Shown in pieces: positions 8,275 through 64,000 of a DNA stretch of 64,000 nucleotides. Source of the stretch: Eubacteriales bacterium. GTDB lineage: Bacteria; Bacillota; Clostridia; Oscillospirales; CAG-272. A model generated the notes under the pieces. It was given only the letters and a program-made list of their open reading frames with translations. It was not told where the DNA came from and searched no databases. The position numbers were made by a program, and so were the translations under genes. Every line of letters begins with the position of its first letter. Positions within the stretch are counted from its first letter, which is position 1. The DNA lies in contig JBJDZM010000002.1 of NCBI GenBank assembly GCA_051867975.1, positions 3,307-67,306 on the forward strand, given 5' to 3'.

Positions 8275-8391
8275 ATAAATCTTCCTTTCCGAGTCACTTA
8301 TAAATATCAGACTCTTTACATTGTATGTCGGATTGGAACAGTCGGTGTATAAAAAAGCAGAAAGGGGCATCGTAAGCCCCTTTCAAAGTAT

Positions 8392-9336
8392 TCAGTTGTA
8401 AAACGCGTGATTTCCTATCGTAAACACATATTCCCTGTTGTTCACTACCCATGACCCCGAAGAATATTTCGGGTTGAGGAAATACAAAATGCTGTTCGAC
8501 ACGGAATATCCTTCAAGACATATCTTCGCCGCAATAATGCTCTCCGCTGTCGCCGCCTGATATATAGTTCCGTTTGCAACAGGCGTGAACTGCGTGCCGT
8601 TCTTTCTGTCAAATATTACACCGTATATCGTGTTCGGGAACTGCTTTGAGCGGACACGGTTCAATACAACATTTCCAACTGCAATTTTGCCCTGAAGGCT
8701 CTCGCCTCTCGCCTCGGCTGAGATTATCTTTGCAAGCCAATATACCTCGTCGTCACGGTAGACCTGCGAAGCACTCTTCAGCAGCCTCGTATCTCCCGAG
8801 CGAACACTGTACGCGCCCTGTGAATCACGGCTTGCGTAACAGTTGAGCGCCTTGACAAGCGGTTCTATCGGAACGTACATCTCGCCGTATATCTCCATAA
8901 CACGGCTCACCGTGTAAAAGTATCTGCCGTTTGCCGATATGTAAAGATTGTTTTCGACCGCCGTTATCTCAAGATTTTCGCCTGAAATCCTGCCCACGGT
9001 CAAATTTCCGCTTTCGTTCGTGGAATAAGTAAATACTCCGAGCCAATCGGCAAATCTGTTCATCGGAACGTATGTAACTCCGTTAATTACAAATACTCTT
9101 CCTTCAAGAACCCTTCTTCCGTTTACAACAACTCCGGTTCTTGACGCTCCTGCCGGCAGTGAGTACCCTATTGCCTCACCCGAGCGAGCCATGGTGTTTT
9201 CATAACACAATTCTCCGCTCTCATAAATCTCTGCCTGTGTCGCTCCGACTCCTACTGTCAGCAGAACGCTTAGCGACATTATCACTGCCGATCCGAATGC
9301 AGTGATCTTGACAATTCTCTTTCTGTTTCTTGTCAT
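8392..9336 (-). CDS. SleB-family cell wall hydrolase with copper amine oxidase-like N-terminal domain
   Basis: Signal/TM segment, then the stalk-like motif INGVTYVPMNRFADWLG. The C-terminal part WLAKIISAEARGESLQGKIAVGNVVLNRVRS...GVIFDRKNGTQFTP matches the Hydrolase_2/SleB signature. Confidence 0.8.
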   Translation of the reverse strand: MTRNRKRIVKITAFGSAVIMSLSVLLTVGVGATQAEIYESGELCYENTMARSGEAIGYSLPAGASRTGVVVNGRRVLEGRVFVINGVTYVPMNRFADWLGVFTYSTNESGNLTVGRISGENLEITAVENNLYISANGRYFYTVSRVMEIYGEMYVPIEPLVKALNCYASRDSQGAYSVRSGDTRLLKSASQVYRDDEVYWLAKIISAEARGESLQGKIAVGNVVLNRVRSKQFPNTIYGVIFDRKNGTQFTPVANGTIYQAATAESIIAAKICLEGYSVSNSILYFLNPKYSSGSWVVNNREYVFTIGNHAFYN

Positions 9337-50260: not shown

Positions 50261-51583
50261 TCACTTGAGTTTAATAAAATCTTCTCTGCTGTAGAAATCT
50301 TCAATCACCTTACATATCGCATTCGAAATCTCTCGATTTATAGAACCTCTGTCTTTGCCCGTTTCGATTGCCTTCAAGAATGCCACAAGCTCATATCTGA
50401 TTCCTTCGCCGTCTAATTGATAGAAATATCTCTTATTCTCACTTTGATTCTCATATCGAATCTCGAAATATTCAGTTTTCCACCACGGAGCCGGAATGTA
50501 AATGTAACCTTTTGTTCCCGAAACAATCAGGTCTCCCTCTGATTTGACACCTTTACCGACTTTAACTGTCGCCACTGCATCTTCATATACGAAATCAATT
50601 TTTGTAAAAATGTCAAATGTTTCATTCAACATTTTTGATACTATTCTTTTTTCTTTATATTCTGTACCCAATAACTGAAAAATCGGAAGCATTACCGTTG
50701 GACCCCAAGCATTGATACTGTTCCAGGTATTGTCTATTTTGTTTTCTTCAATAAGTTCTATATCTCTAAGGCTTGTTGCTGTAGCATCTATGGAAACAAT
50801 TTTCCCGATTTTCCCGCCTTTTGCCAAGAGCAACATTCTTGAATATGCCGTTGAGTAGGCAGTTTTAATGGAATCCATTAAAATACAATTCTTTTGTTCT
50901 GCGAATTCATGTAATTCTTTGCTTTGCTCATTTGTTAATGCAACAGGAGCTTCACAAAGAACATGTTTGCCGCATTCAATAGCTTTTTTTATCTGTTCAT
51001 AGTGTAAACGAGGCTGAGAAAAAATGTATATAGCATCAACGCAAGAAAGCAGTTCTTCATATGAGGCGACTCTTCTTATTCCGATTTCTCTGTCACTATC
51101 GGTATAAATAGCTTCTGCAGCTAAACCGTTAACTAAACGCGACTCGTTTAAAAATTTATCTATTACAATTGATTCTCCAACAAATCCAAGTTTTACCTGT
51201 CTCTTCTCAGCTCTGATTTCGGAACTTGAAACTCCTTGTGTTCTGTCAAGATATACAACTTTGCAGTACTCATTCAGATAATCAAACTGACCAACCCAGT
51301 CAGACCCTACAGTAAAAATGTCTACATCGAGTCTTCGGATGTCATCAATTTTCTGCCCTTCATACTCTTCGATAATAATTTCATCAGCTATACCGGTAGC
51401 TCTGACCGCTTCAACACGCTCCATTAGTGACTGCTGCACATTAATCTTGCCGCGAGTCTTGTCAAAATCATCGGCAGTAACTCCGACAATTAAGTAATCT
51501 CCCAGCTCTTTCGCTCTCTCTAAAAGTCTGATATGACCATAGTGGAGCAAATCAAAAGTACCGTATGTAATTACTTTTGTCAT
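50261..51583 (-). CDS. Bifunctional TagD-like cytidylyltransferase / Gfo-Idh-MocA family oxidoreductase
   Basis: Preferred start MTKVITYGTFDLLHYGHIRLLERAKELGDYLIVGV follows GGAGGA. The N-domain is close to my memory of B. subtilis TagD, including RTQGVSSSEIR. The C-terminal ~310 aa carry the Rossmann start KLGFVG and the Gfo/Idh/MocA pattern (HVLCEAPVAL). Confidence 0.8.
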   Translation of the reverse strand: MTKVITYGTFDLLHYGHIRLLERAKELGDYLIVGVTADDFDKTRGKINVQQSLMERVEAVRATGIADEIIIEEYEGQKIDDIRRLDVDIFTVGSDWVGQFDYLNEYCKVVYLDRTQGVSSSEIRAEKRQVKLGFVGESIVIDKFLNESRLVNGLAAEAIYTDSDREIGIRRVASYEELLSCVDAIYIFSQPRLHYEQIKKAIECGKHVLCEAPVALTNEQSKELHEFAEQKNCILMDSIKTAYSTAYSRMLLLAKGGKIGKIVSIDATATSLRDIELIEENKIDNTWNSINAWGPTVMLPIFQLLGTEYKEKRIVSKMLNETFDIFTKIDFVYEDAVATVKVGKGVKSEGDLIVSGTKGYIYIPAPWWKTEYFEIRYENQSENKRYFYQLDGEGIRYELVAFLKAIETGKDRGSINREISNAICKVIEDFYSREDFIKLK

Positions 51584-51598
51584 ACCGACATCCTCCAA

Positions 51599-52672
51599 TT
51601 ACAAAAGATTCCTCTTTTGCATATCTTTTAAAGCATCGATAAGTGATGTATTATCTTCGTGTGTTAATGCGCCTATATGCCCAACTCTGAAAATAGTATC
51701 CTTCATATCCCCACCATTAGGACAAATCCAGATTCCATACTCGTCTTTTAATGTCAAGAAAACATCATAAGCATTAGCTGTTGTCGGATGGACAGATGTT
51801 ACTCCGTTGGCAGGGCTTTCCGAAACAAGCTCAAACGGGAGTTCCTTTATTTTTGCTCGAAAATCTTCCGCCTGTGCTGCAACACGTGCAACCTCAGCAT
51901 CAGCTCCCCCGTTTCTTTCAATCTCTTTGAGCCTTTCGTTTATCTGCAAAAGGATACCCACCGCAGGTGTAAAAGGAGTCTGACCTCTCTCTTGGTCTTT
52001 AAGTGCGTCTTTCAAATTGAAATACATACTTCTGACATTTGATGACTCAATTCTTTCAAGTCCATTTGGCGAGAGAACAATAATTGAAATACCGGGAGGG
52101 CATGCCAGAACCTTTTGAGATCCTGTAATCATTACATCTGCTCCGCACTCTGCCATATTAAAGGGGTCAGCCAAAAATGCAGATACGCAATCACAGACAA
52201 AGAACATGTTATTCTTTTTACAGAAGTCACCAATCATCATCGTGTCATAGAGAACAGCCGTTGACGTCTCATCAACATTGACAAGCAGTCCTGTAAATCC
52301 TTGATTGTCGTATTCGTATAATCTTTCCTTAGTGAGTTTTTTTCCGTGTTCCAGCTTCAAGACAACATGAGGGATCTCGTGTATCTCACAAAGCTCAACA
52401 AACCGCCGACCAAAACTACCGCCGTTGATTACAAGTACCTTATCGTCCTTTGAAAAACAGTTCATTACAACAGCTTCCATAGAGCCGGTGCTTGAGCATG
52501 TCATAAATACAGCTCTGGATCCTTCCGGTGCCTTTGAGTATTCAAGCATATATTTTTCGTTTTCAAGCATTACAGCAGAAAACTCAGCTGTTCTGAAATA
52601 TGGAACCTGTTCTGCTCCGATTGAACGAACTCCATCAGATGACATTACAGGACCAACAGTAAAATTAAGCAT
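51599..52672 (-). CDS. Class V (AGXT/serine-pyruvate type) pyridoxal-phosphate aminotransferase
   Basis: LNFTVGPV N-terminus and PLP-lysine motif [13 protein letters not shown]. 357 aa. Confidence 0.8.
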
Positions 52673-52685
52673 AGCATTCTTCTCC

Positions 52686-53471
52686 TTAATTTATCTCAGG
52701 CAATTGATAACTTTGATCATCATATGTGATGGTCGCAGCACCCCCGGAAATATAAACCAAGTCACCAACAATCATTCTTCCGCTAGTACCAACTAGTTGA
52801 ATTGCGAGACTGGCAACCTCTTCAGCTGTACAATACCGTTTTGAAGGGTTCTTTTCGTTATACAAGTCACTTCCATCTTTACCTAACATCTCCGTAGCTG
52901 TCGGTCCAGGCGCAATACCATTTACAACTATATCATATGGAATTAAAGCCTTTGCCAATCCACTGGTAAGCCCCCTAATGGCCCATTTGGACAGCATATA
53001 TGGATTAATTGCGGGTCTTGCTGAAGATGTGCTACCAACCATTAGGATATTGCCTTTTATTTCATTACGTATCATGTATTTAGAAAACAACTGCGACAGA
53101 AAAAAAACAGCTTTAATATTGGTGTTCATTACTCTATCAAACTCATCTTCCGTTATAACCGGAAATAATTGCTGGCACATCACACCGGCATTATTAACCA
53201 AAATGTCAATTTTGAAAGGAAGATTTGCTAAATACCCATCCATAACATTTAACATGCTCTCGGTATCCGAAATATCTAAGCTTAATGTCCTAATCTTTTC
53301 GTCATACTGGAGACCTAAACTTGCCTTGGCTCTTAGCAGCTTCTCACCATTTCTCCCTATCAGTACAACATTATCTATATTCCCAACTAATAGTTGTTTT
53401 GCTATTTCAAACCCGATTCCACTTCCACCACCGGTGATTATTGCATTTCTTCCTTTAAAATCGTTGACCAT
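52686..53471 (-). CDS. SDR family oxidoreductase
   Basis: Cofactor motif [13 protein letters not shown], and catalytic YMLSK (YxxxK). Confidence 0.85.
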
Positions 53472-55138
53472 TATAAATCACCCAACTGTTCTTCCAATTT
53501 TCGGTATACATTTAGCGTTACCTGACCATCAGATACAGTTTCTGTAAAGGCCTCTAAGACAATTGGCTTATCGCTAGTACCCACGAACGTCTTTAATTTG
53601 TCATCCAGTTCATCTTCAGCCCGCACTGAAAGGTACTTAAATCCCGCCGATATTGCCCAACCTTCCGCATTTATGGTATGTTTCGCTCCAATATGTAAAT
53701 CTATTGTCTTATTTTTGCTTGCTCCCGGTGAAATATAGAACTCACCACCGCCGAAGTTATTAACGACTAAAATCCTCACATTATTCTTTATATGCCTGAT
53801 TTGCAGAGCATTCATTGCATAGAAAAAACTTAGGTCGCCAACAACGATAAAAGATAAATCATCCGTACAGTATGCCTGTCCTAAAAATGTTGGTAAGTTT
53901 CCATCAATACCAAATGTATTTACGTTTGAATATACTCTAACCGATTCGTCGATTTCAAAAAACTGAGCAAGTCTAGTGGCATTTAAAATGCTTAGATGTA
54001 GTAGAGAGTTATTAGGTATTATTCTCAGAAAACTACCTATTACAGAGAAATTTGAGTATGGCAATTCAGGTAATACAGCATGCTCGTCCAGTTTCTTCCA
54101 CTTCTCATAGTACTTGGTGTCGTAAGCATCAACTTTGCTCATTATCTGATTGCAGAGGTCAGTAACCCTTGTATGTATGATTTTAGTTTGAGATTTAAAG
54201 CAATCTCTAATAACACCGTCTTCGCACACAGCCCAATGCTCAAACAATCTTGCATTTGCTTTTAGTAAATCTTTTGTTCTTTCCTGAAAATTCAGGCCAC
54301 AAGTAATTACAATATCAGGCAAGTATTTCTGAATTGTTTTTGAATTCAGCCCCTTAATCACTCTGGAAGCATTGATGTTCTTGCTTGATTTAAAATTCGA
54401 TAAAGAATCTGTAAGAACCGGTATATTATACTTTTCAACGAACTCTCTAATAATACTCTTTTCATCGTCACTCAGTACAATGTCTTGGCCAAACACAAAC
54501 AAGATATTTTTGCCTTTGAATGAGGCATATATATCCTCAAAGTCTGAGCGAATATCATAGTAATCAATAAATTTGATATCATTGATTCCGTACTTGTGCT
54601 GTCCATCTTCCATCATGTCATTTGCATCACCGATAAGCGGAACATTAATATGAATAGGACCTCCGCCATTGTTCTTTAATGCAATAAAGGCCTCATTTAG
54701 AATTCGCTGGCAATACCATACATCCTCTTCATCCTTGATTACAGGCAGATTTATATTCTTCTTAGTAATGGAATCAAACAATGACATTTGATCAATTTTT
54801 TGTGTTTCTAACTGGTTTAACACATACGGAGAACGATCAAACGTAATAACCACCAATGGTACATTGGAATAGAATGCCTCCGAAACACCACTGACATAAT
54901 TAGAAACCGCTGTTCCGCTTGTACATGCTATGGCAACAAGTTCTTTGCTCTCTTGTGCAAGCCCCATTCCAAAGAACGCCGCGTTTCTTTCATCGACTAC
55001 CGAGAAACATTCAAAATCTTCATCGACTTCAACAGCGGAGATAAACGGAATATTTCTTGAACCGGAAGACAGTACGATTTTCTTTATTCCATGCCTTTTC
55101 AAAAAAGCCACTAATATTTTGTTATTTATGTATTCCAT
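53471..55138 (-). CDS. Three-domain thiamine-diphosphate enzyme, MenD-like
   Basis: N-domain SSGSRNIPF...VDERNAAFFGMGLAQ...ACTSGTAVSNY...VVITFDRSPY. ThDP motif GDLSFFYAMNAL...ILVVNNFGGGEF. Both resemble my memory of MenD more than IlvB or phosphonopyruvate decarboxylase. TAATG overlap with the SDR gene. Confidence 0.7.
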   Translation of the reverse strand: MEYINNKILVAFLKRHGIKKIVLSSGSRNIPFISAVEVDEDFECFSVVDERNAAFFGMGLAQESKELVAIACTSGTAVSNYVSGVSEAFYSNVPLVVITFDRSPYVLNQLETQKIDQMSLFDSITKKNINLPVIKDEEDVWYCQRILNEAFIALKNNGGGPIHINVPLIGDANDMMEDGQHKYGINDIKFIDYYDIRSDFEDIYASFKGKNILFVFGQDIVLSDDEKSIIREFVEKYNIPVLTDSLSNFKSSKNINASRVIKGLNSKTIQKYLPDIVITCGLNFQERTKDLLKANARLFEHWAVCEDGVIRDCFKSQTKIIHTRVTDLCNQIMSKVDAYDTKYYEKWKKLDEHAVLPELPYSNFSVIGSFLRIIPNNSLLHLSILNATRLAQFFEIDESVRVYSNVNTFGIDGNLPTFLGQAYCTDDLSFIVVGDLSFFYAMNALQIRHIKNNVRILVVNNFGGGEFYISPGASKNKTIDLHIGAKHTINAEGWAISAGFKYLSVRAEDELDDKLKTFVGTSDKPIVLEAFTETVSDGQVTLNVYRKLEEQLGDL

Positions 55139-56264
55139 GTTTGTCCCCTTTACCTTCCAATAACTTAAGTTCTCTATTTAGATATTCAATGGATTCTGTT
55201 CTTGCCTTTGATATCCTTTCATGCACCAAGTCATAATTGATTTCATGATTAAATTCTTCTTTTCCGGTAACGAGCATATGGTCAGACAAACCGAAAAGTT
55301 GCAGAATCTCGTCAATCTTTGTATTACACTGTTCCCTGGAGAAGATCACAAATGGTCTTCTATACTGAACAGCGAAAATCATTCCGTGAAATGAATTCGT
55401 GACAACATACTCTGCGTGCTTAACAAGTGACAGAAATTCCTCTACTCCTGCCTGATAGAACATTCTATGACCTTTTTCGGCATTTGTTGCCCTTAAACTA
55501 ATCTCAACAATTTTCCAACCATTTTTCTTTGCCAGCCCCTCTGCATACTGTTCCATAACCGGAGAATATCTTCTGGAGTAATAAAGCAAATATTTGTCCT
55601 CTTCCAATCTTTCCCCAACAGCAATCTCATCATATTTTTCAGATGTATGGAGAAGTGTTGGATCTACTACCTTTTGTACGGGAACATCCACGTGTTCCGT
55701 TACATAAGGAACCATATGGTTCTCACGCAGTCCAAACGCCTTGAAGTTCTTAAGTCTTTCATTCAAGATTCGACAATTCTCTTCTGATAAGGTTGGATCA
55801 CCAAAGCTCGCAGCATACGCTACGGAGTTTCCTTTCATACAATCATAATTTGCATAGAAGCCATCGTCAAATCCGAATTCATCCATACAAAAGATTGTAT
55901 CACTTCCGCAAACAAATCCATCCAAGCGTTCATCCGTAACTACATCATTGAAATTCACAGAAGTATATTTGCGCGGTGTTCTTTTGAATCTTTCTGAGTA
56001 GAATTTATCAAACTTACAATAATTCTCTCGGATTGCAGGCATAGTAAGCTCGCACATTCTCTTTGATTCTGCATCCTTATCCCACATATTCTTGAACGGA
56101 TTAAGAGGGTCTTTATCAGCTAAAACATCCGGGCAATAATCCACAAGCACAGGCTGATACCCAAGCGAGGAAATTGCTTGATGTAATGCCCAAGATTGTA
56201 ACGCAGACCCATAATTTGTAAAGTTACCGTATATATTGTATGAAATAACACCTAAATTTTTCAT
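55122..56264 (-). CDS. Polysaccharide pyruvyl transferase family protein
   Basis: N-terminus NLGVISYNIYGNFTNYGSALQSWAL and C-terminal VVTNSFHGMIFA, typical of the CsaB/WcaK-type family. Confidence 0.75.
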   Translation of the reverse strand: MKNLGVISYNIYGNFTNYGSALQSWALHQAISSLGYQPVLVDYCPDVLADKDPLNPFKNMWDKDAESKRMCELTMPAIRENYCKFDKFYSERFKRTPRKYTSVNFNDVVTDERLDGFVCGSDTIFCMDEFGFDDGFYANYDCMKGNSVAYAASFGDPTLSEENCRILNERLKNFKAFGLRENHMVPYVTEHVDVPVQKVVDPTLLHTSEKYDEIAVGERLEEDKYLLYYSRRYSPVMEQYAEGLAKKNGWKIVEISLRATNAEKGHRMFYQAGVEEFLSLVKHAEYVVTNSFHGMIFAVQYRRPFVIFSREQCNTKIDEILQLFGLSDHMLVTGKEEFNHEINYDLVHERISKARTESIEYLNRELKLLEGKGDKHGIHK

Positions 56265-57094
56265 TGTTCTTCTCCGGGATTAACTCGATAAGCAGTAAAT
56301 GTGTGATGAGTGTGACGTTGTGATTCGGGGGGGAGTATCATATAATCACCATACAGTTTTCTAAGGTAGGCATCATATCCTCGCAAGGCTCTGACTTCTC
56401 TGCCCTCAAATACCACTTTGATACAGTCAAAATACTCCTCTCGCGGAAGAATCGTTTTCTCTCTGAATGAACCCGAAAGTGCTCCCGCATATTTAGATGA
56501 ATAGAAATCGTATTTCGCATTTGCCTTATCCAATTTTCGAGCAATTCTATTTGCAGAGACATTGCGCGTAATCAAAAACAAGGCAAATCTTATCGGCTCA
56601 TAAACAATCGAATGAGTTGTGCTTTTAGAATACTTTTTCATTCCTGCGCAGGTCATTAAAAGTTGTTTGAATTTTCCACGTTTAACATTCTTCTTTGCTT
56701 GTTTAACTGAATCTCCCAATCCATCTACCGGAAAAATATCAATGCTTACGCCCATATTTGCTCCATTAATGTTAGTGACTTGGTCTTCGATGACAGTCGA
56801 TGTATCGCACACTTTGGCAAAAACATCTTGATAATATGGATTATTATTGCAACACACTACTTTGAGTCCATCCTTGCCGTCACCAAAGTATTCTATCAGT
56901 TCACAATAATCCTTTCGCGGCATCATAATGTCAATATCGTCGTCCCAAGGAATGAATCCCTTATGTCGTATGGCACCTATAAGCGTTCCTGCTGTAATTG
57001 AGTAGTTCCAACCTTTTTGATTGCAAAGTTGGTCAATTTTCATCAAAATATCCAGTGCTATTTCTTTTATTTCGTTATCTTGAATTGGTTTCAT
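56261..57094 (-). CDS. LicD family phosphotransferase
   Basis: GTLIGAIRHKGFIPWDDDIDIMMPRKDY signature. Preferred start MKPIQDNE follows GGAGGA. Confidence 0.85.
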   Translation of the reverse strand: MKPIQDNEIKEIALDILMKIDQLCNQKGWNYSITAGTLIGAIRHKGFIPWDDDIDIMMPRKDYCELIEYFGDGKDGLKVVCCNNNPYYQDVFAKVCDTSTVIEDQVTNINGANMGVSIDIFPVDGLGDSVKQAKKNVKRGKFKQLLMTCAGMKKYSKSTTHSIVYEPIRFALFLITRNVSANRIARKLDKANAKYDFYSSKYAGALSGSFREKTILPREEYFDCIKVVFEGREVRALRGYDAYLRKLYGDYMILPPESQRHTHHTFTAYRVNPGEEQ

Positions 57095-57172
57095 TATGTC
57101 CTCCAAGTTAATCCTTTATAATCAAGAATACCTAATTCCCCTTGCTGCTAAAGATTCACACTTTTTAATAAA

Positions 57173-58642
57173 TCATCGTTTAATCATTTTTCTTAAGTGT
57201 TTCATATCATCTTTTGCAAAAATGAAGAACATCACGCAGTAGCACAGTACACAAATTAAAATTGAAACGATTTGCCAATAAAGAGAATCAAAAAGATTCT
57301 TTGTGAAAAAACCGACAACGTACATGCCCGCAGTCAGTAATGCAGGCTTCGCCAAATTTTTTATTACTCTTTTGATGGATATTTTAAAGACCTTAGAGAT
57401 AATTATCAAACTCGGAATTACAATATCCAATCTGGCAATACATCTGATTATAACGAATGTTTCCAAACCATATTTGACACCAATAACACAGCAAGGAATC
57501 AAAATCAGCATGTCCAGCAGTTGAAGATACACTGAAATTTTAGGTTTTCCTTTAGAAATATATATTGCGCTGTTTATACTGACCAGCAAAATTCTGAGGA
57601 TTGAAACAACCGACCACAACGCAATCACGAACTCGGCATCTTCCCATCCTGAACCAAACACGATTTTTACTGCTAATTCACGAAATAAAAATATGCCCAC
57701 ACCCATCGGCAATAAAATATAGGCTAAAATCCGTTGCATATTAAAAAATGTGTTGTTATACTCTTCGTCATCATCACATTTTGAAAGAGCAACAATTAAT
57801 ACATTTGTTATTCCGTACTGAGGGATGGAGAGCACACCGTTTACTACACTCTGTGAATTTTTATATATTCCGAGATTGTGAGAATTCATTCTATTCCCCA
57901 CTATGAATGAATCAAACCAGGATGTTGCCCAAACGGATATTCCTTCAACCATTATCCACATACTAAAGGAAAAGATGTTTTTCAACCTCCGGAAACTATA
58001 ATAGAAATGCGGTCTCCATACCGCACGAACCGACAGTATTAAAGAGCGAAGCAAATATCCCACTATATTACCAATGATTATTGCCCAATATCCAATTCCG
58101 CTAAAGGCTAAAGACAGGGTAACACCTAAAGTTACAATAGATGAAATCAGTTGGCTTACAAAAGGTCTTCTGAAGTTGTATTCCCTATGATAAACGGCTG
58201 TTTGAATACTGGAAAGCGCTGTTATCGGCAACTGCATACACGCAATAACCATAGCAAACTCTAATTCGGGATTTCCCAATACAAAACATATCGGCTCCCT
58301 GAAAAGCGAAATTATTGCCCATAATAATACTGATATGGAAAGGTGTGTCCAAAACGCAACATCGGAATCCTTAGATAATTCCGAAGAATCTTTGTAGTCC
58401 TTACTGACGATATACTTTTGAAATCCCGATTCACTTATTGTGTCTGCAAAGCTGGTTACCATTGTTATGGTAGCAATTGCTCCAAACACTTCAGGTGCAA
58501 ACAGACGCGCCAATATCATATTAGAAAGGGGCGGAATTATCTTCGCAATAATTTGGGTCAAAAAAGACCATGATGTAGCTTTTGCTATCTTTTTATCATT
58601 CATAACCAACTTACTTGCCCCTTTTGTTAAATATTCATACAA
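57173..58642 (-). CDS. Oligosaccharide flippase (Wzx, MOP superfamily)
   Basis: 489 aa, ~12-14 TM helices, N-terminal pattern of polysaccharide biosynthesis proteins. Start codon uncertain. Confidence 0.75.
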   Translation of the reverse strand: MYEYLTKGASKLVMNDKKIAKATSWSFLTQIIAKIIPPLSNMILARLFAPEVFGAIATITMVTSFADTISESGFQKYIVSKDYKDSSELSKDSDVAFWTHLSISVLLWAIISLFREPICFVLGNPELEFAMVIACMQLPITALSSIQTAVYHREYNFRRPFVSQLISSIVTLGVTLSLAFSGIGYWAIIIGNIVGYLLRSLILSVRAVWRPHFYYSFRRLKNIFSFSMWIMVEGISVWATSWFDSFIVGNRMNSHNLGIYKNSQSVVNGVLSIPQYGITNVLIVALSKCDDDEEYNNTFFNMQRILAYILLPMGVGIFLFRELAVKIVFGSGWEDAEFVIALWSVVSILRILLVSINSAIYISKGKPKISVYLQLLDMLILIPCCVIGVKYGLETFVIIRCIARLDIVIPSLIIISKVFKISIKRVIKNLAKPALLTAGMYVVGFFTKNLFDSLYWQIVSILICVLCYCVMFFIFAKDDMKHLRKMIKR

Positions 58643-58709
58643 ATTAATAGAGCTCTGTGCAAACTAATAACGAATTCTTAATAGACAGTCTAAAACGGTT
58701 CTTGCTCCA

Positions 58710-59405
58710 TTAGTTCAATTTTAATATTTTCCATATTTCCTTTCTTTTCAATCTCCATTCAGGAATATCATCAATAATTTGAGATGATTTTGCATAGAAA
58801 GGGATTACTACACTATTCTCTAACCCTTCATACCTTTGCTTTGTGAAAATGATTTTGTTTTTGTATGGCAATGAATTAAAGATATATAAATCCTCTTTTT
58901 CACATAAATTCATTTCAGAAAATTTAACAATTAAATTGTCTCGGTTAACTCTTGATAATCTTTTATTCCATTTTTCTTCTGCCACTTTAGGATCCTTGTA
59001 ATGTAAAAAAATAATTTCTATATCGTCCAACACTCCTACCGGCACATCTTGCTGACCTTTAAGAATAAGTATGTCTTTATATCTTGACTCATTATATGTA
59101 ATCATTTTTAATTTGCAAGATAAATAATACTCAATATTAGAAACGAATTTTATATAATCCTTCGCGAAAAAATACGAACCTACCGTTGGAGAGAGCTTAT
59201 TTAATCCGCAGTACTCATATACTGTTCCTCCCCAGCAGTTATTTGAAATGATAGTAAAGGTTTGACCTTTATATTGTTGAAATCTCTTCTTTTCTGTAAA
59301 TCTATCTGCCAATTTATAGAAACACCTCAGAATCTTAGTTCTAGCTCTTTTAACTAATCTCTTTTTTTCTCTTTGTTCGATTCTTATTTTTTCAATATCA
59401 TTCAT
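58710..59405 (-). CDS. DUF1919 family protein (exopolysaccharide-associated)
   Basis: TIISNNCWGGTVYEY motif typical of DUF1919. ATGA overlap with the upstream acyltransferase gene. Confidence 0.6.
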   Translation of the reverse strand: MNDIEKIRIEQREKKRLVKRARTKILRCFYKLADRFTEKKRFQQYKGQTFTIISNNCWGGTVYEYCGLNKLSPTVGSYFFAKDYIKFVSNIEYYLSCKLKMITYNESRYKDILILKGQQDVPVGVLDDIEIIFLHYKDPKVAEEKWNKRLSRVNRDNLIVKFSEMNLCEKEDLYIFNSLPYKNKIIFTKQRYEGLENSVVIPFYAKSSQIIDDIPEWRLKRKEIWKILKLN

Positions 59406-60427
59406 GGGGTTTTCTCCTGCTTTTTCTTACATATCGGATTTTCTATAAATTTATGCATTAGATATCCTAAAGTTATTAATACGATTATCGGCAATAAAAT
59501 AATCCATTCGCTCTTAAGACCTGCGCGATACAAATTAACAATCATGACATATCCAATATTTTGATGTATTAAATATAACGGATACGAAATGGATGCAATA
59601 AAAGTCAGCGGATACAACACTTTTCTCATCATACTCGGGGGTTCAACATTGGATTTTTCCATTAAGATGATCCCCACAAGCAGAACATTGGATAATAAAA
59701 AGAAAAAGCCATAATCCAAATTAAACATCCTGAATTGCGTGGCAATACATAGCAACCAACCCACAGTATTTACCACATACTCAAATGCTTTTTTACTGTT
59801 AAACAGAAAAAAGACAAATCCTCCTGCCAGAAACATGTGTGCATATTGAGCCATGAATAATTTGTTGGCTAAAGAATATACAATACCATAGCCTTCAAAG
59901 AAAGGAATTATGTTTGCAATAAGGAGCCATATGATTGCTATAAATGAGAACTTTGTTTTTTGCTTCAAAAACACCATGAAGAACGCCATAAAGAAATAAA
60001 AAATCAACTCGTTTGCTAACGTCCAATATGCGCCATCCACCGGCTCGACTCCCAAAAACGATTCGAGCATTGTCAGATTAATGAGGAACGATTTTAGCGA
60101 CACGGCTCTTTCAACCAAAAAAAATTTTGTAACGACAAAGGTCAAAATTACAGCACACCAATAACATGGAAATAGCCGAACCAACTTGCTTTTCACATAC
60201 GTCCAAACTGTTGTATCTTCTTTATAGTGCCTTAATGATAGGTATCCGCTTAGCAAAAAAAACACGCACACACCCATGTAACCAAACGGAATTTTAAAAG
60301 TCCATCTCTCACTGAGCTCGGGAAACAGCTCCACAATCCTGGTTGTGTAATGATATAACACGACCAACAAGCATGCTAACCCTCTCATATAATCAAAACC
60401 GTGTATTCTCTTTTTCTCAATACTCAT
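59402..60427 (-). CDS. Acyltransferase family 3 membrane protein (putative O-acetyltransferase)
   Basis: RIHGFDYMRGLACLLVVLYH N-terminus and ~10 TM helices. Confidence 0.8.
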   Translation of the reverse strand: MSIEKKRIHGFDYMRGLACLLVVLYHYTTRIVELFPELSERWTFKIPFGYMGVCVFFLLSGYLSLRHYKEDTTVWTYVKSKLVRLFPCYWCAVILTFVVTKFFLVERAVSLKSFLINLTMLESFLGVEPVDGAYWTLANELIFYFFMAFFMVFLKQKTKFSFIAIIWLLIANIIPFFEGYGIVYSLANKLFMAQYAHMFLAGGFVFFLFNSKKAFEYVVNTVGWLLCIATQFRMFNLDYGFFFLLSNVLLVGIILMEKSNVEPPSMMRKVLYPLTFIASISYPLYLIHQNIGYVMIVNLYRAGLKSEWIILLPIIVLITLGYLMHKFIENPICKKKQEKTP

Positions 60428-60444
60428 ATGGGCCCATATGTTCC

Positions 60445-61641
60445 TTAGTTCTCTTTTATTTTCGGTATAGAAGGTTTTTTATTTATGACATTCAGATAAG
60501 CATAAACAATAGCTATAAGAATTTGTGTATACGCAGAAATATACATGACCATCGTGATAAAGGAAAATAATAACACCGCGCAAATTATTATCATTGTATA
60601 ATCCAGCGTGGTTTTTTGTTTCACTTTAATGCCCTTGAACATTAGAGATATGGTTGGCCAATAATATAACAACGCAATTGGTATTCCGTAACTGCACATT
60701 ACTTCAAGATAGTCACAATGGCAATATACACCAATTCCGCTCTTTGATGCGAAATTTCCCAATCCAATTCCAAAAATCGGACTGCCCTTTACAAATTTCC
60801 AAGCCAATGCCATATATTTTTCTCTTAAATCAATGCTTGACGATTCGGATGCCCCATGAAAAAAAGCATTTATCATTGACTCGACTCGTCGTCCGATTGT
60901 CTGATATAGACTTTCGTTTGTCATGATAACTTGATAACCTACAAACAAGACAACCGCAAGACCCAAAACAGCAAATATCAGATTTTTCTTTTTTTCCAAG
61001 CCGATTGTGTATATCAGAACAGTGGCTAATACTAAGGCTAACAGGGCCTTCCTTGATCCTGAGAACAGTACAATTGCTGTCAGGAGAATGTACGAAACAG
61101 CATAAAACCATCTATGTTTTTCGGATTTGTTTCTAAATAAACAAATCGAAATAATTGCTGCAATCGCGGCTTTATTACCGACATCATTTGCGTTATATCC
61201 AATTGCTTCACCCAGTCTGTCAAAACTCATCCAAGCAGAGATCGGGGTGGAAATGAGCAACCTTATAAACAATATTAAACCGCCAATTGCAAAAAATTTT
61301 AAAAATTGTACTATCTGTTTTTTTTCGCGTAAATATGCGCTGAATGTGAAAGCAATTAAAAAACACTGTATTACATTGATTAAGGTATGTGTCGCCAGAC
61401 CGAGATCCCCCGCAATCAACGTTGCAAAAACCGATGCAACAATCATTAAAAAACACCATATTTGATATTTGTTAATGGCACCGCGCCTTACTATCAGCCA
61501 ATAATACCCATATACTAAAATAAATACTATTTTTATCGGATAAGTAATATATTTTTCTTCATTAAATGCCCATATTGAAATAATTAGCAAAAACCCCATT
61601 AATTGACACAACGAAGGAAGTTTTTTATATAAAAATTTCAT
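60445..61641 (-). CDS. O-antigen ligase/polymerase family membrane protein (Wzy-like)
   Basis: 398-aa polytopic protein within a Wzx-type locus, with a large loop containing GSRKALLAL. Confidence 0.6.
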   Translation of the reverse strand: MKFLYKKLPSLCQLMGFLLIISIWAFNEEKYITYPIKIVFILVYGYYWLIVRRGAINKYQIWCFLMIVASVFATLIAGDLGLATHTLINVIQCFLIAFTFSAYLREKKQIVQFLKFFAIGGLILFIRLLISTPISAWMSFDRLGEAIGYNANDVGNKAAIAAIISICLFRNKSEKHRWFYAVSYILLTAIVLFSGSRKALLALVLATVLIYTIGLEKKKNLIFAVLGLAVVLFVGYQVIMTNESLYQTIGRRVESMINAFFHGASESSSIDLREKYMALAWKFVKGSPIFGIGLGNFASKSGIGVYCHCDYLEVMCSYGIPIALLYYWPTISLMFKGIKVKQKTTLDYTMIIICAVLLFSFITMVMYISAYTQILIAIVYAYLNVINKKPSIPKIKEN

Positions 61642-61646
61642 AATGG

Positions 61647-62738
61647 TTATCTCCGTTGCATAAGAAGTTGTTCGTATTTCTCATGGGTATTTGAAGCGAT
61701 GGTATCCCAATCATATTGCTTTGACAGTTCCCACGCATTTATCTGTTTTCGGTCAAATTCGGGAATATCCTTCATCATTCTTGTCAACGCGTCCGAAATA
61801 CTGTTTGTATCCACCTTTGCTGTCCATCCTGCATCAAAGCGTTCGACAACATCTGTCATATTTGTTCCGTCTGTAATCAAACACGGAAGTCCGTAACTCA
61901 TTGCCTCGATGAGAGACATCGGCATGCCTTCGAATCTGGAGGTCATCACGAAAAAATCTGCATTTTCAAGGACAGACTGCTTTTCTATACCAAAAACTCC
62001 TTCTCGAATTATTATCAATTCTCCCATATCCTTTTGAAGTATCTGTTCTTGGTATTCTTCTCTGCAGTTGTATCTCTTTGGTCCGTACAGCTCAATTACA
62101 ACATTATTCTCTTGCATGTTTTTTTTGCACGATACACATGCATCAAGCAATAAATCCAGCCCTTTTTGAACAGGCTCGAACCTTCCGATGTAAACGCCCC
62201 TGATTACCGAGCCTCTTTCTTTGGTTTTAAACGGTTTTCTCTCTATACCGTTACCGATGACAAATGAATTTTTGCACCATGAGTTGCCTGAATCACTCAA
62301 TTCCTTTTCTGTCAGGTAATGTACCGCCAAGGCATGCTTTGTCATGGGCTTGAATAACAATATATTCGCCAAAAGCTTCTTGATTCTCTTCCGGCTCTGC
62401 CCCTGTTTTGTGAGTGCGCTCCTCGGTACTACGACATAAGGAATTTTTCTTCTTCTGCACTCACGTGAAAGGAGCGCATCATCTACATAGTAAAAGCTTT
62501 CGAAAACCACTAAATCGGGTTTGTCAAACGGTTTTGGCAAATCAGATATTTTTTTGCTCTGATATTCCTCTATTCCGTGAAACAGCCCCGTATCCAACCA
62601 ACTTTGCTGCTTTGCCGATGTCAGATTCCACCAAAAAACACTATCATACTTTGACTGGGCTTTTATCTGAGCAGGCACACTGTAATTAGGTCCTTCGGAA
62701 ATTGCATCCGTCAGGTGAGAAATATATAAAATATTCAT
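61647..62738 (-). CDS. Glycosyltransferase family 4 (GT-B, GT1-type)
   Basis: EGMPMSLIEAMSYGLPCLITD (E-x7-E region). Preferred start MNILYISHL follows AAAAGGAGAA. Confidence 0.8.
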   Translation of the reverse strand: MNILYISHLTDAISEGPNYSVPAQIKAQSKYDSVFWWNLTSAKQQSWLDTGLFHGIEEYQSKKISDLPKPFDKPDLVVFESFYYVDDALLSRECRRRKIPYVVVPRSALTKQGQSRKRIKKLLANILLFKPMTKHALAVHYLTEKELSDSGNSWCKNSFVIGNGIERKPFKTKERGSVIRGVYIGRFEPVQKGLDLLLDACVSCKKNMQENNVVIELYGPKRYNCREEYQEQILQKDMGELIIIREGVFGIEKQSVLENADFFVMTSRFEGMPMSLIEAMSYGLPCLITDGTNMTDVVERFDAGWTAKVDTNSISDALTRMMKDIPEFDRKQINAWELSKQYDWDTIASNTHEKYEQLLMQRR

Positions 62739-62813
62739 GTTTATATTCTCCTTTTCCAAAGCTCAATTTTTTCTTGTTAGTGACTCTATCGATGAATCTG
62801 CTGATTTTCACGT

Positions 62814-63638
62814 TCACTGTCTATGTAACAAGGTTTTAAAAATCAACCCTCTTAATTTGTTTGGCATCAATGCAACGATAAATTGTACAAGCAGAGTATA
62901 ACGGTAGTCCCACCAACCTATATATCCTGTTTGATATACCATCTTTCGTCCTTGCTTATACTTCTTATAATATTTCCAACCGCCGCGACGCTTAAACATA
63001 TCTTTTCCGACCCGGAAATAAAGCAGGAAATCATCTATGTTTTTTGCCTTTGCACCGTGCAAAAATAAATTTACCCACAGATATGTATCTTCCATCAGAG
63101 GGCAGCTTTGATAATTTCCTGCCTCTAATACTTTTGACTTTTTAAACATCACAGTAGGATGATTAAATCCGTCTCTCCTCTTCTGATATTTCTTTATTTC
63201 GGAATCGGTCAGCGGAACGGTTCTTTTTGCAACAATGTTGTCTATCGAATCTTCAAATTCCAAAATATGACTTCCGCATATATCCAATTCGGGATCTTTT
63301 TCAAACTCGGACAGCTGTCTCTCAAACCTGTCTTTCCTTGATATATCATCTGTGTCCATGCGAGCAATCAGATTGTTTGAGCAGTGCAAAACGCCTTCGC
63401 GAAGAGCCAAGCCAAGCCCTTGATTTTCTTTCAACGGAACCCGTTTGATCAACCCCGGGCATCTGCTCTCATATTCGTCGAGAAGAATGTATAATTCGTC
63501 GGTTAAGGGGCCGTCCTCGACAATCACCCATTCATCGGCTAATACTGTTTGATTCAACAAACTATCGAAACACGCTCTCGCATACTCGGGTTTTTCTTTT
63601 ATATAGAGCGACATTAATACTGAAAATTTTTCACTCAT
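62814..63638 (-). CDS. Glycosyltransferase family 2
   Basis: FSVLMSLYIKEKPEYARACFDSLLNQT and DTDD motifs. Confidence 0.8.
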   Translation of the reverse strand: MSEKFSVLMSLYIKEKPEYARACFDSLLNQTVLADEWVIVEDGPLTDELYILLDEYESRCPGLIKRVPLKENQGLGLALREGVLHCSNNLIARMDTDDISRKDRFERQLSEFEKDPELDICGSHILEFEDSIDNIVAKRTVPLTDSEIKKYQKRRDGFNHPTVMFKKSKVLEAGNYQSCPLMEDTYLWVNLFLHGAKAKNIDDFLLYFRVGKDMFKRRGGWKYYKKYKQGRKMVYQTGYIGWWDYRYTLLVQFIVALMPNKLRGLIFKTLLHRQ

Positions 63639-64000
63639 TTATTCGATGTCTCCTGTTCAGATACGGTTGCATTATCAACATAATCACCTTTATACTCTTT
63701 GCCCAATACTGCAAACACGGTTTTAAACATCGTACCAATATCACCGAAAAAACTGAATCTTTCAATGCTTTTCAGGTTGTAATACATTTTACCGGGCAAC
63801 ACCTTATTAACATAGACCTCGTCTATGTTTTCAGCACCATCCAGCAGTCTGTCCTCATCCTTGTAAAGAATACTCGCCTCAGATGTCACACCTGCCGGCA
63901 GAAGCAGTGTCGCCATCATAACAGGTGAGTATCGGTCCACATATTTCGCGACCTCGGGTCTTGTGCCGACAAATGTCATTGTTCCTTGGAAGACATCAAT
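63635..64000 (-). CDS. Bacterial sugar transferase (polyprenyl-phosphate hexose-1-phosphate transferase), C-terminal part; gene continues past the window end
   Basis: ...IDVFQGTMTFVGTRPEV...LLLPAGVTSEASILY matches the conserved catalytic C-domain of WbaP/EpsL-type priming enzymes. ATGA overlap with the GT2 gene. Confidence 0.75.
   Translation of the reverse strand: MDVFQGTMTFVGTRPEVAKYVDRYSPVMMATLLLPAGVTSEASILYKDEDRLLDGAENIDEVYVNKVLPGKMYYNLKSIERFSFFGDIGTMFKTVFAVLGKEYKGDYVDNATVSEQETSNK

Follow-up and report, generated by a model that had tools for sequence, protein, structure and literature searches.

What do the six tightly coupled minus-strand genes at the end of a Wzx/Wzy glycan locus make? 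A preliminary description had placed them in a single route to one CDP-linked product. Comparison with related loci led us to a different reading, to which we assign a probability of roughly 0.45, namely that the cassette is a fusion of two glycan-decoration modules, each of which also occurs alone, carrying the substituents proposed below.

Gene content of the locus

All six open reading frames were found on the minus strand of the window (the whole 64,000-nucleotide stretch analysed) at the coordinates reported earlier. They encode a LicD-family phosphotransferase (56261-57094; Pfam PF04991 LicD, 172 bits) with a DDDID motif in its translation, a polysaccharide pyruvyl-transferase-like protein of the PEP-dependent family (PvT, 55122-56264; PF04230 PS_pyruv_trans, 110 bits), a MenD-paralogous three-domain ThDP enzyme of 555 amino acids (53471-55138; TPP_enzyme_N and TPP_enzyme_C), a classical SDR ketoreductase (52686-53471; Pfam adh_short, 150 bits), a class V aminotransferase of the AGXT/PhnW/SerC type (AT, 51599-52672; PF00266 Aminotran_5) and a TagD-type cytidylyltransferase (CT) followed by a degenerate Gfo/Idh/MocA-like domain (CT-Gfo, 50261-51583; PF01467 CTP_transf_like and PF01408 GFO_IDH_MocA). 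Pfam and NCBIfam searches confirm the domain calls of the preliminary description, and its three overlaps are all present in the sequence: ATGA between LicD and PvT (56261-56264), 17 nt between PvT and the ThDP gene (55122-55138) and TAATG between the ThDP and SDR genes (around 53471). For the LicD gene, called as 56261-57106, the most likely start is the ATG at 57094, in agreement with the earlier assignment. The CT-Gfo gene, called as 50261-51598, most likely starts at the ATG at 51583, which yields a protein of 440 amino acids, the length seen in homologues; both ATGs are preceded by GGAGGA.

The locus is AT-rich, with a GC content of 33-40% compared to 44-50% in its flanks. It ends at position 50261, beyond which lie housekeeping genes (GNAT, YmdB, MnmE, holA-like). 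The remainder of the glycan locus (57173-63979, minus strand) runs past the window edge and, according to Pfam, comprises a Wzx flippase (57173-58642), DUF1919 (58710-59405), Acyl_transf_3 (59402-60427), Wzy (60445-61641), GT4 (61647-62759), GT2 (62814-63638) and the C-terminal part of a Bac_transf initiating transferase (63635-63979). The cassette does co-occur in other genomes, as the gene set is repeated at 10 further distinct loci around ThDP orthologues of 48-93% identity; the arrangement is therefore not due to chance. The six genes are real and widespread in gut bacteria. We found no published assignment for the cassette in the literature.

Two separable modules

PvT, the ThDP enzyme and the SDR constitute module A, while LicD, AT and CT-Gfo constitute module B. 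Lacking LicD, AT and CT, the PvT-ThDP-reductase trio recurs in four phyla and at least eight loci; its carriers include Diplocloster modestus, Rubneribacter, Pseudobutyrivibrio, Labilibaculum mangrovi, Akkermansia and Phocaeicola as well as one human-gut species that is very common (cluster of 1767 sequences). At the loci L024-26 of Enterococcus cecorum and at L036/37, AT and CT-Gfo have a LicD or TagF-like transferase beside them but no ThDP gene. Another example of module B alone, L027, proved to be a degraded version of a window-like cassette in which an SDR fragment of 82% identity survives. R. albus 7 carries both modules at a distance of five genes. Between hosts that lack the ThDP gene or share it at only 50-60% identity, AT is 75-92% and CT-Gfo 73-81% identical; the window AT shares 92% and 75% identity with E. 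cecorum ATs that adjoin CT-Gfo and 77% with the AT of R. albus 7. The identity of AT thus follows CT-Gfo and not the ThDP enzyme.

These distributions bear directly on the single linear route, which we now regard as unlikely. In that route the ThDP enzyme would combine a 2-oxo acid with a phosphorylated acceptor such as PEP, GAP or phosphoglycolaldehyde into a phosphorylated acyloin or ketone, the SDR and/or AT would modify the carbonyl, CT would activate the product with CTP and LicD would transfer it; were PEP the Michael acceptor, a 2-phospho-4-oxo-, 4-hydroxy- or 4-amino-pentanoate would result. It is consistent with the three translational overlaps and with the lack of a kinase, which means that the phosphate must derive from a phosphorylated substrate. 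It also agrees with the core clade of paralogs, where in 11/11 loci the operon of the ThDP gene also contains AT, a CT and, as a rule, LicD, and with the compact LicD-ThDP-SDR-CT arrangement of L016, which has no AT and no detectable PvT. However, the trio exists without LicD, AT and CT, the AT and CT-Gfo pair exists without any ThDP gene, the identity of AT goes with that of CT-Gfo, and the route leaves without a role PvT, the most constant neighbour, although PvT and the ketoreductase are the constant partners of the ThDP enzyme. Given the co-occurrence in the core clade, modules A and B may act on one molecule there, for example if PvT acts on the free hydroxyl of CDP-serinol. At L016, where PvT is missing, a CDP-linked ThDP product fits better than a sugar ether.

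Proposed chemistry of the two modules

Of 23 distinct loci, 21 have the PvT gene adjoining the ThDP paralog or at most about three genes away from it. In 20 of the 23 the ThDP gene has a carbonyl reductase as its neighbour, be it a classical SDR, an extended SDR or an aldo-keto reductase; SDRs of 41-47% identity adjoin it in L012, L014, L015-L018, L022 and L041, and extended SDRs or aldo-keto reductases take their place elsewhere. Since non-homologous carbonyl reductases fill this slot, we infer a carbonyl group in the ThDP product. Known PS_pyruv_trans enzymes yield ketals and not stable enol ethers, which weighs against the enolpyruvyl group proposed below. The PvT-like protein is a confident member of PF04230, the family of the ketal-pyruvyl transferases CsaB, WcaK, EpsO and Pvg1, and is encoded within a polysaccharide locus beside the flippase; a PDB search gave no sequence relative. 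While the known enzymes act alone and leave a terminal pyruvate ketal, PvT is coupled here to a ThDP enzyme and a ketoreductase. At L036/37, an orthologue of 66% identity is partnered by a Fer4/FrhB-like redox protein where the ThDP gene is absent. Both pairings imply further processing of the PEP-derived group, and the latter counts in favour of the PvT product as a shared intermediate.

We propose that the ThDP enzyme is the carboligase of module A, a MenD paralog recruited for an uncharacterised step of carbon-carbon bond formation. Module A would build a second, acidic substituent from PEP. The PvT-like enzyme would install an enolpyruvyl (2-alkoxyacrylate) group, and the ThDP enzyme would then decarboxylate a small 2-oxo acid, probably pyruvate rather than 2-oxoglutarate, and add the acyl anion by a MenD-type conjugate (Stetter) addition to give a 4-oxo-2-O-substituted acid. 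Reduction by the SDR would lead to a 2,4-dihydroxypentanoate-type ether. The order of PvT before the ThDP enzyme, the donor acid and the nature of this substituent are our suggestion. As a chemical precedent, sugars of Providencia alcalifaciens O31 are known to carry 2-ethers of 2,4-dihydroxypentanoic acid (PMC10609480).

A different role for the same genes would follow the branched-sugar chemistry that the preliminary description had named as the nearest analogy. Here the ThDP enzyme would join an acyl anion to a keto- or aldehydo-sugar by 1,2-carboligation, the adjoining SDR, extended SDR or aldo-keto reductase could make the acceptor or reduce the product, and the new diol of the branched-chain or chain-extended sugar would be ketalised by the pyruvyl transferase. 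This accounts for a ketal-forming PvT downstream of diol formation, and the pairing of ThDP enzyme and reductase in a glycan locus is the logic of YerE/YerF in yersiniose synthesis, where the reductase acts after the ThDP carboligase; extended SDRs of the NDP-sugar 'Epimerase' type moreover flank the ThDP gene in many loci. However, YerE is an AHAS-like flavo-ThDP enzyme that acts on CDP-4-keto-3,6-dideoxyhexose, whereas the best PDB matches of the window enzyme are MenD (1.4e-45), with the AHAS/YerE lineage at 3e-13, and the genes of an NDP-ketosugar pathway are missing from the window locus, which has neither an NDP-sugar nucleotidyltransferase nor a 4,6-dehydratase. FabG-type SDRs or aldo-keto reductases can also take the reductase position, which is more in keeping with the reduction of a small carbonyl than with NDP-sugar chemistry, and the pairing of a PvT orthologue with an FrhB-like redox protein where the ThDP gene is absent likewise speaks against this scheme. 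The analogy is therefore weak, and we consider this chemistry quite improbable.

In module B, AT carries its PLP lysine within GSQK (residue 187), and its sequence is nearly that of PDB 3f0h. Against TagD (TIGR01518, cutoff 165) the CT domain reaches 116 bits; it matches the TagD structures 2b7l/1coz at about 1e-34 and retains HxGH, RTxGxSS and basic residues at the positions of TagD K44 and K46. Homologues of CT-Gfo with more than 70% identity are numerous, and elsewhere AT and CT-Gfo are accompanied by LicD or a TagF-like Glyphos_transf protein. The dehydrogenase step assumed earlier is doubtful, as the canonical EKP of the Gfo-like domain is replaced by E-A/S/L-P in 8/8 aligned family members, with loss of the lysine, and the Rossmann glycine motif is degenerate; the domain could be catalytic via other residues. 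HisC-type enzymes use substrates of the type R-CO-CH2-OPO3. HisC-like ATs lie alongside CT-Gfo at L036/37, and at L038 the class V AT is fragmented while an intact HisC-like AT adjoins CT-Gfo.

For module B we envisage that AT draws on central metabolism, taking a phosphorylated carbonyl compound and forming a phospho-amino-alcohol from it. Parsimony would favour the conversion of dihydroxyacetone phosphate (DHAP) to serinol phosphate, with an ethanolamine-phosphate-like product as the alternative. The cytidylyltransferase would activate this compound with CTP, and LicD would move it from the resulting CDP-amino-alcohol donor, such as that of serinol phosphate, onto the polysaccharide. A precedent for AT may be seen in Campylobacter jejuni, where PLP enzymes convert central metabolites to phospho-amino-alcohols for the capsule, DHAP to serinol phosphate by Cj1437 and serine phosphate to ethanolamine phosphate by Cj1436 (PMC11800397). 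There an ATP-grasp-type ligase joins the product to glucuronate as an amide, and dephosphorylation follows, whereas the product here would be CDP-activated and attached by a phosphodiester.

Cytidylyl activation of a phospho-alcohol followed by LicD/TagF-type transfer is shared with TagD/TarD and TagF (CDP-glycerol), TarIJ (CDP-ribitol), LicC and LicD (CDP-choline) and PntC and LicD (CMP-AEP), and the CT domain is TagD-like. Unlike these systems, module B has an aminotransferase, class V or in some loci HisC-like, as obligate partner, contains no kinase, reductase or PEP mutase, and has a CT that falls below the TagD equivalog cutoff and carries the Gfo-like domain. The earlier view that the cassette fits none of the CDP-glycerol, CDP-ribitol, CDP-choline and aminoethylphosphonate (AEP) routes holds. 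Known phosphonopyruvate decarboxylases (Ppd) are two-domain enzymes and not MenD-like. An AEP-type variant, in which the ThDP enzyme replaces Ppd, AT acts as AEP transaminase, CT makes CMP-AEP and LicD transfers it, is very unlikely in our view: PhnW-AepZ is the best NCBIfam match of AT and an NTP_transferase-type enzyme stands in place of the TagD-type one at L013, but AT scores only 162 against TIGR03301 (cutoff 360), AT and CT-Gfo exist without any ThDP decarboxylase and, as noted before, none of the 13 locus genes encodes a PEP mutase by Pfam. The tailoring logic of nucleotidyltransferase and LicD as such is established for AEP (PMC6697681).

The ThDP enzyme and MenD

The ThDP enzyme had been described as MenD-like but outside a menaquinone context, and both statements were upheld. 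It has the three-domain ThDP fold of MenD (SEPHCHC synthase, EC 2.2.1.9), its closest family by sequence; TIGR00173 menD is the top NCBIfam family with 233.4 bits against a cutoff of 244.2, followed by acetolactate synthase with 75.8, and identity to true MenDs is 24-34%. The cofactor Glu55 (E55), GDLS...NN, R395, Q118 and F475 are retained, as are R33 and R107 in the core clade. In contrast, S391, R413 and I474, which like L478 are present in 6/6 operon-verified MenDs, are replaced by L, V and E, respectively. R413 is kept in 0/20 paralogs, S391 is lost in 18/20 and Glu occupies position 474 in 18/20. In MenD, the carboxylate that comes from 2-oxoglutarate is held by R413/R428/R431 and S408 (PMC2914249, PMC12312563). 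At the level of the alignment, this carboxylate clamp (Arg413, Ser391) has been lost from the paralog.

The paralogs form a clade separate from the six operon-verified MenDs and always reside within Wzx/Wzy glycan loci, in most cases beside a PvT-like gene and a reductase. No men genes, that is menF, menH, menB, menC or menE, occur in the window or within 10 kb at any of 23 paralog loci, while the identical neighbour test does detect men genes around a true Prevotella MenD. Based on the TIGR00173 score below cutoff, the lack of men neighbours and the changes at R413, S391 and I474, the ThDP enzyme is, judged by sequence, a MenD paralog and not SEPHCHC synthase. That a canonical MenD merely sits in the glycan locus, as the NCBI annotation of P0001, P0059, P0088 and P0109 as MenD has it, is disfavoured to the point of being barely credible despite the retained R33, R107, Q118 and R395 and a score just 11 bits short of the cutoff, given also that the synteny with glycan genes is conserved in four phyla. 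N117 and L478 of MenD, which presumably contact the enolpyruvyl group of isochorismate, are not conserved among the paralogs either, so that enolpyruvyl recognition is not simply inherited from MenD, which counts against the Stetter proposal.

Locus organisation and two separable modules

A run of minus-strand open reading frames extends from position 50261 to the end of the window, with a GC content of 33-40% compared to 44-50% in the flanks. The last six genes, all on the minus strand, encode a LicD protein starting at ATG 57094 (PF04991, 172 bits, profile positions 1-227 of 227), a pyruvyl-transferase-like protein (PvT; PS_pyruv_trans, PF04230, 110.3 bits compared to a gathering score of 25.3), a ThDP enzyme of 555 amino acids (TPP_enzyme_N, PF02776, 76.5 bits; TPP_enzyme_C, PF02775, 27 bits), a classical SDR, a class V aminotransferase (51599-52672) and a 440-residue fusion of CTP_transf_like and GFO_IDH_MocA domains (CT-Gfo, 50261-51583), all assigned with Pfam. 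Upstream of these lie genes for Wzx, a DUF1919 protein, Acyl_transf_3, Wzy, GT4, GT2 and the end of a Bac_transf initiating transferase, and downstream of the locus follow housekeeping genes (GNAT, YmdB, MnmE, holA-like). The DUF1919 protein (58710-59405, 167 bits) is encoded inside the locus, between the Wzx and Acyl_transf_3 genes. The tight coupling reported in the preliminary description is borne out by the window sequence, which contains the ATGA overlap (56261-56264), the overlap of 17 nt (55122-55138) and the TAATG junction (53471). GGAGGA precedes both ATG 57094 of the LicD gene and ATG 51583 of the fusion, which are likely start codons; from the latter the fusion has the same length as its homologues.

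At E ≤ 1e-10 the ThDP enzyme has homologues in 2505 clusters, of which the best 120 are all at least 50% identical to it. We compared 23 distinct loci (designated L and a number) from contig look-ups and one GTDB genome scan, annotated with tblastn/phmmer and Pfam. Relatives of CT-Gfo were found by protein search and contig look-ups, and a tblastn search of a plasmid collection returned mostly true MenDs, which served as controls, together with pRUMAL01 of Ruminococcus albus 7. The 11 loci of the core clade (48-93% identity to the window ThDP enzyme) belong to Ligilactobacillus ruminis DSM 20403, to MAGs of Bacilli, Lachnospiraceae, Ruminococcus and Eubacteriaceae, and to a Verrucomicrobia MAG. 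All 11 carry PvT (immediately upstream in 10), a class V aminotransferase and a cytidylyl- or nucleotidyltransferase, and most carry LicD; the cassette thus does co-occur in other genomes, as had been proposed for checking. Clade 2 (37-40%, six loci from Diplocloster modestus, Rubneribacter, Pseudobutyrivibrio, Labilibaculum mangrovi and a human-gut cluster of 1767 sequences) has PvT-ThDP-SDR, with LicD, the aminotransferase and the cytidylyltransferase absent from five of six loci. Clade 3 (28-34%, six loci from Akkermansia, Phocaeicola, R. albus 7 and others) has PvT in five of six loci and a reductase. Of the 23 loci taken together, 21 pair the ThDP paralog with PvT and 20 with a carbonyl reductase, counts that are descriptive and not probabilities given the phylogenetic non-independence of the loci. 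The PvT-ThDP-reductase triad is widespread, with carriers in Bacillota, Bacteroidota, Actinomycetota and Verrucomicrobiota; among them is a very common human-gut species. In the Ruminococcus MAG locus L013 an NTP_transferase/MobA-like (LicC/IspD-type) nucleotidyltransferase (8140-8880) takes the place of the TagD-Gfo fusion in an otherwise similar set (LicD-PvT-AT...ThDP-reductase, AT being the aminotransferase).

The reductase slot is filled by non-homologous enzymes, namely a classical SDR (window, L012, L014, L015-18, L022, L041), an extended SDR (L005, L013, L019-21, L029, L034, L038) or an aldo-keto reductase (L010, L011, L023). This non-orthologous displacement next to the ThDP gene suggests a carbonyl in the ThDP product.

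CT-Gfo homologues comprise more than 120 clusters at no less than 71% identity, always with an aminotransferase alongside. The Enterococcus cecorum capsule loci L024-26 encode Wzx, a TagF-like Glyphos_transf protein, an OCD/mu-crystallin protein, the aminotransferase and CT-Gfo, and both the ThDP gene and PvT are absent from them. On pRUMAL01, LicD-AT-CT and PvT-Wzx-ThDP-reductase lie five genes apart. The window aminotransferase shares 92% identity with that of E. cecorum L027, 75% with that of L024 and 77% with that of R. albus, hosts in which the ThDP enzyme is absent or 29% identical. L027 (GCA_003319275.1) has kept only LicD, the aminotransferase and CT-Gfo; PvT and the ThDP gene are gone, HTH and choline-binding fragments are found instead, and a 96-residue fragment (8610-8897), 82% identical to the C terminus of the window SDR, lies directly upstream of the aminotransferase gene. 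This locus is a decayed window-like cassette in a chicken pathogen. The loci L036 and L037 (5093-7517) encode a PvT 66% identical to that of the window, followed by a Fer4 plus FrhB_FdhB_C (F420-dehydrogenase beta-like) protein; the ThDP enzyme is absent and the aminotransferase is a HisC paralog (TIGR01141, 225 bits compared to a cutoff of 276). In L038, class V aminotransferase fragments (7435-7888) lie beside an intact HisC-like aminotransferase gene (7921-8979) upstream of CT-Gfo, which looks like a non-orthologous aminotransferase replacement in progress.

Since each set is found without the other across the compared loci, the six genes appear to split into module A (PvT, ThDP enzyme, SDR) and module B (aminotransferase, CT-Gfo, LicD). 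The six genes had previously been taken as one linear route to a single CDP-linked product, and the independent occurrence of the modules contradicts such a pathway. It nevertheless stays alive as an alternative, as both modules co-occur constantly in the core clade and L016 has the arrangement LicD-ThDP-SDR-CT with no detectable PvT.

Module B and a candidate CDP-amino-alcohol donor

The LicD translation contains the acidic motif WDDDIDIMM, and a PDB sequence search with this protein gave only a marginal fukutin-related match. The cytidylyltransferase domain contains HYGH and RTQGVSSSEIR (HxGH and RTxGxSS motifs), matches TagD in the PDB at 5.6e-35 and has R49/K51 as basic residues in the positions of TagD K44/K46. 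Its score against TIGR01518 (TagD) is 116 bits, below the equivalog cutoff of 165. The domain thus shares the fold and chemistry of TagD, though not necessarily its substrate.

The Gfo-like domain (residues ~135-440 of the fusion) matches PF01408 with 57 bits and lacks both the GxGxxG motif and the EKP lysine, a conserved catalytic residue of the Gfo/Idh/MocA family. The EKP position reads EAP, ESP or DLP in all eight aligned CT-Gfo family members, compared to EKP in the four best PDB relatives (4had, 3e9m, 3evn, 2glx), and the Rossmann glycine motif is degenerate (GFVGES in the window; G-x-[VI]-G-x-[SAFG] across the eight members). Conservation of the domain is nevertheless above 70% over hundreds of clusters. 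The dehydrogenase step assigned to this protein earlier is thus doubtful, and the domain may serve only a structural or ligand-binding role, possibly as a pseudo-enzyme domain. An active Gfo domain could still pair with the aminotransferase in an oxidation and transamination of CDP-glycerol, although the missing EKP lysine weakens this explanation.

The window aminotransferase is nearly identical to PDB entry 3f0h (726 bits, full-length), a structural-genomics 'Aminotransferase' without assigned function, whose source we take to be Eubacterium rectale; a crystal structure of this module B enzyme therefore already exists. The class V slot is filled by a HisC-type enzyme in some loci, and HisC-type substrates have the form R-CO-CH2-OPO3. 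As no kinase is present, the phosphate of the module B product would come from a phosphorylated metabolite. Most economically, DHAP would be converted to serinol phosphate and then to CDP-serinol, from which LicD would transfer the group; an ethanolamine-phosphate-type product is the alternative. The conversions of DHAP to (S)-serinol phosphate by Cj1437 and of serine phosphate to ethanolamine phosphate by Cj1436 are established in capsule decoration (PMC11800397). The searched literature does not contain the term 'CDP-serinol', and the aminotransferase and CT-Gfo pair would imply an undescribed CDP-amino-alcohol donor.

Neighbours of the aminotransferase and CT-Gfo genes include an ornithine-cyclodeaminase/mu-crystallin protein (L024, 7964-8866, E. 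cecorum) and an Octopine_DH-family protein (L002, 1498-2517), which hint at an opine-type N-carboxyalkylation of the amino-alcohol. N-(1-carboxyethyl)ethanolamine phosphate is found in Proteus O-antigens.

A MenD paralog in the glycan locus

The best NCBIfam match of the window ThDP enzyme is TIGR00173 (menD) with 233.4 bits, short of the equivalog cutoff of 244.2, and acetolactate synthases follow with at most 76 bits. In a PDB sequence search the closest solved structures are MenDs (Listeria 9e9b, 1.4e-45), with AHAS at ~3e-13. The description of the enzyme as MenD-like is thus supported by both searches. PYR and PP domains are present, and the cofactor-activating E50 and GDLS...NN are invariant.

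We aligned 20 glycan-locus paralogs with six MenDs encoded within men operons (E. coli, Bacteroides finegoldii, Prevotella, a Bacillus-type record, Listeria and S. aureus; E. coli numbering) and calculated a neighbour-joining tree. All six operon MenDs retain S32, R33, E55, R107, Q118, K292, S391, R395, R413, I474, F475 and L478. The window enzyme retains S32/R33, E55, R107, Q118, R395 and F475 and carries the changes N117T, S391L, R413V, G414N, S416F, I474E and L478S. R413 is kept in none of the 20 paralogs, S391 is lost in 18 and Glu occupies position 474 in 18. The core clade retains R33, R107, Q118, R395 and F475, with Glu at 474 and Ser or a variable residue at 478; clades 2 and 3 have lost R33 and R107. 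In MenD, binding of the distal carboxylate from 2-oxoglutarate falls to R413 (B. subtilis R428, Listeria R431) and Ser, and R33 and R107 serve isochorismate (PMC2914249, PMC12312563). The tree places all paralogs in a single group, separate from the six MenDs.

With Men proteins of E. coli, Bacteroides and Listeria as tblastn queries, none of menF, menH, menB, menC and menE was found in the window or within ±10 kb of the 23 paralog loci, and the same search does recover men genes around the Prevotella MenD control. This agrees with the earlier remark that a MenD homologue lies here outside a menaquinone context. As the clamp residues R413/S391 are lost, the paralogs form a separate group and men neighbours are lacking, use of 2-oxoglutarate in the manner of MenD is very unlikely. 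On the sequence evidence the window enzyme is a MenD paralog and not MenD. In the record of the B. finegoldii MenD control (L028, 1-2886) the antiviral reverse transcriptases drt3a and drt3b are encoded ~5 kb upstream of the men operon, unrelated to the present finding.

Members of all paralog clades (the database homologues P0001, P0059, P0088, P0109, P0255 and others) are publicly named '2-succinyl-5-enolpyruvyl-6-hydroxy-3-cyclohexene-1-carboxylate synthase'. By the same comparison the NCBI name 'MenD' on family members is a mis-annotation, and since thousands of entries carry it, menaquinone capacity would be over-called in gut Clostridia and Bacilli.

A proposed Stetter-type extension by module A

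PvT is the only PEP-using enzyme of module A; a PDB sequence search with it gave no match. An enolpyruvyl ether is a 2-alkoxyacrylate and thus a Michael acceptor, and MenD and PigD are natural Stetter-type enzymes. In MenD the reaction is a conjugate (Stetter-type) addition (PMC2914249). We propose that PvT supplies a PEP-derived enolpyruvyl ether as the acceptor, that the ThDP enzyme adds an acetyl anion from pyruvate to give a 2-O-substituted 4-oxopentanoate, and that ketoreduction would yield a 2,4-dihydroxypentanoic acid 2-ether. Sugars of Providencia alcalifaciens O31 are known to bear ethers of this type (Shashkov et al. 2008, cited in PMC10609480). Our literature searches returned neither a biosynthetic route to them nor an assignment for Providencia O31 gene clusters. 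The MenD paralog would accordingly be a 'glycan Stetterase', a new natural enzyme beside MenD and PigD that performs acyl-anion conjugate addition to a PEP-derived enolpyruvyl ether carried by a sugar or phospho-amino-alcohol; it would provide the missing route to 2,4-dihydroxypentanoate-type ethers and, with a CDP-serinol-type module, a zwitterionic polysaccharide of gut Firmicutes. We give this reading as a whole a probability of about one in five. The pairing of PvT with an FrhB-like protein in L036/L037, where the ThDP enzyme is absent, fits a shared enolpyruvyl intermediate that is either reduced or extended, the Fer4/FrhB-like protein possibly representing the alternative, reductive processing of the same PEP-derived group.

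Three points weigh against the enolpyruvyl model. The known PF04230 enzymes form ketals. N117 and L478, near the enolpyruvyl group of isochorismate in MenD (PMC6618250), are unconserved in the paralogs. L016 lacks a detectable PvT, an arrangement that would be compatible with a CDP-linked product and with PEP itself acting as acceptor.

A rival to conjugate addition is a YerE-like carboligation onto a keto-sugar, in line with the YerE/YerF analogy drawn in the preliminary description. That system would call for an AHAS-like flavo-ThDP enzyme and NDP-4-ketohexose genes. The analogy does not hold up well, as the AHAS matches (3e-13) compare to 1e-45 for MenD and Pfam detects no NDP-sugar dehydratase or nucleotidyltransferase in the window locus. 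Three further candidates were rejected: a canonical MenD, on the score below the TIGR00173 cutoff, the lack of men genes in the window and within ±10 kb of the 23 loci, and the loss of the R413/S391 clamp; the 2-aminoethylphosphonate route (Ppm, Ppd, AEPT), which would call for a PEP mutase and a two-domain phosphonopyruvate decarboxylase in the cluster, as none of the 13 locus genes encodes a PEP mutase, in agreement with the earlier account, and the aminotransferase scores 162.5 bits against TIGR03301 (PhnW/AepZ; cutoff 360.8); and decarboxylation of phosphohydroxypyruvate to phosphoethanolamine, as E. cecorum has the aminotransferase but no ThDP enzyme and this route would leave PvT without a role.

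Literature searches gave no assignment for MenD with LicD and a cytidylyltransferase, or for a pyruvyl transferase with thiamine, and no published function for the PvT-ThDP-reductase triad; thiamine enzymes go unmentioned in a 2019 review of glycan pyruvylation, as does the ThDP gene in an Akkermansia capsule paper. All parts come from known families, in combinations that match no described system in the searched libraries: in one, a MenD-lineage enzyme is joined by a pyruvyl transferase and a ketoreductase, in the other, an aminotransferase by a TagD-Gfo fusion. The triad points to a new elaboration of PEP-derived groups on polysaccharides, and the cassette would provide a non-carbohydrate decoration of Wzx/Wzy glycans with potential for new enzymology. 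The product identities of both modules we infer. Zwitterionic surface glycans are known for immunomodulatory effects in the gut; if a carboxylate comes from module A and a free amine from module B, one could speculate that a single mobile cassette yields such a glycan.

Cultured carriers allow direct testing, among them Ligilactobacillus ruminis DSM 20403, Ruminococcus albus 7, Diplocloster modestus, Labilibaculum mangrovi and Enterococcus cecorum. The L. ruminis type (L001, 1-2008; L008, from DSM 20403) has the cassette just downstream of fliD, fliS and three unannotated ~500-residue proteins and not within a Wzx/Wzy locus, and a second aminotransferase paralog lies upstream. Given this placement, its target is possibly flagellin or another non-capsular glycan.
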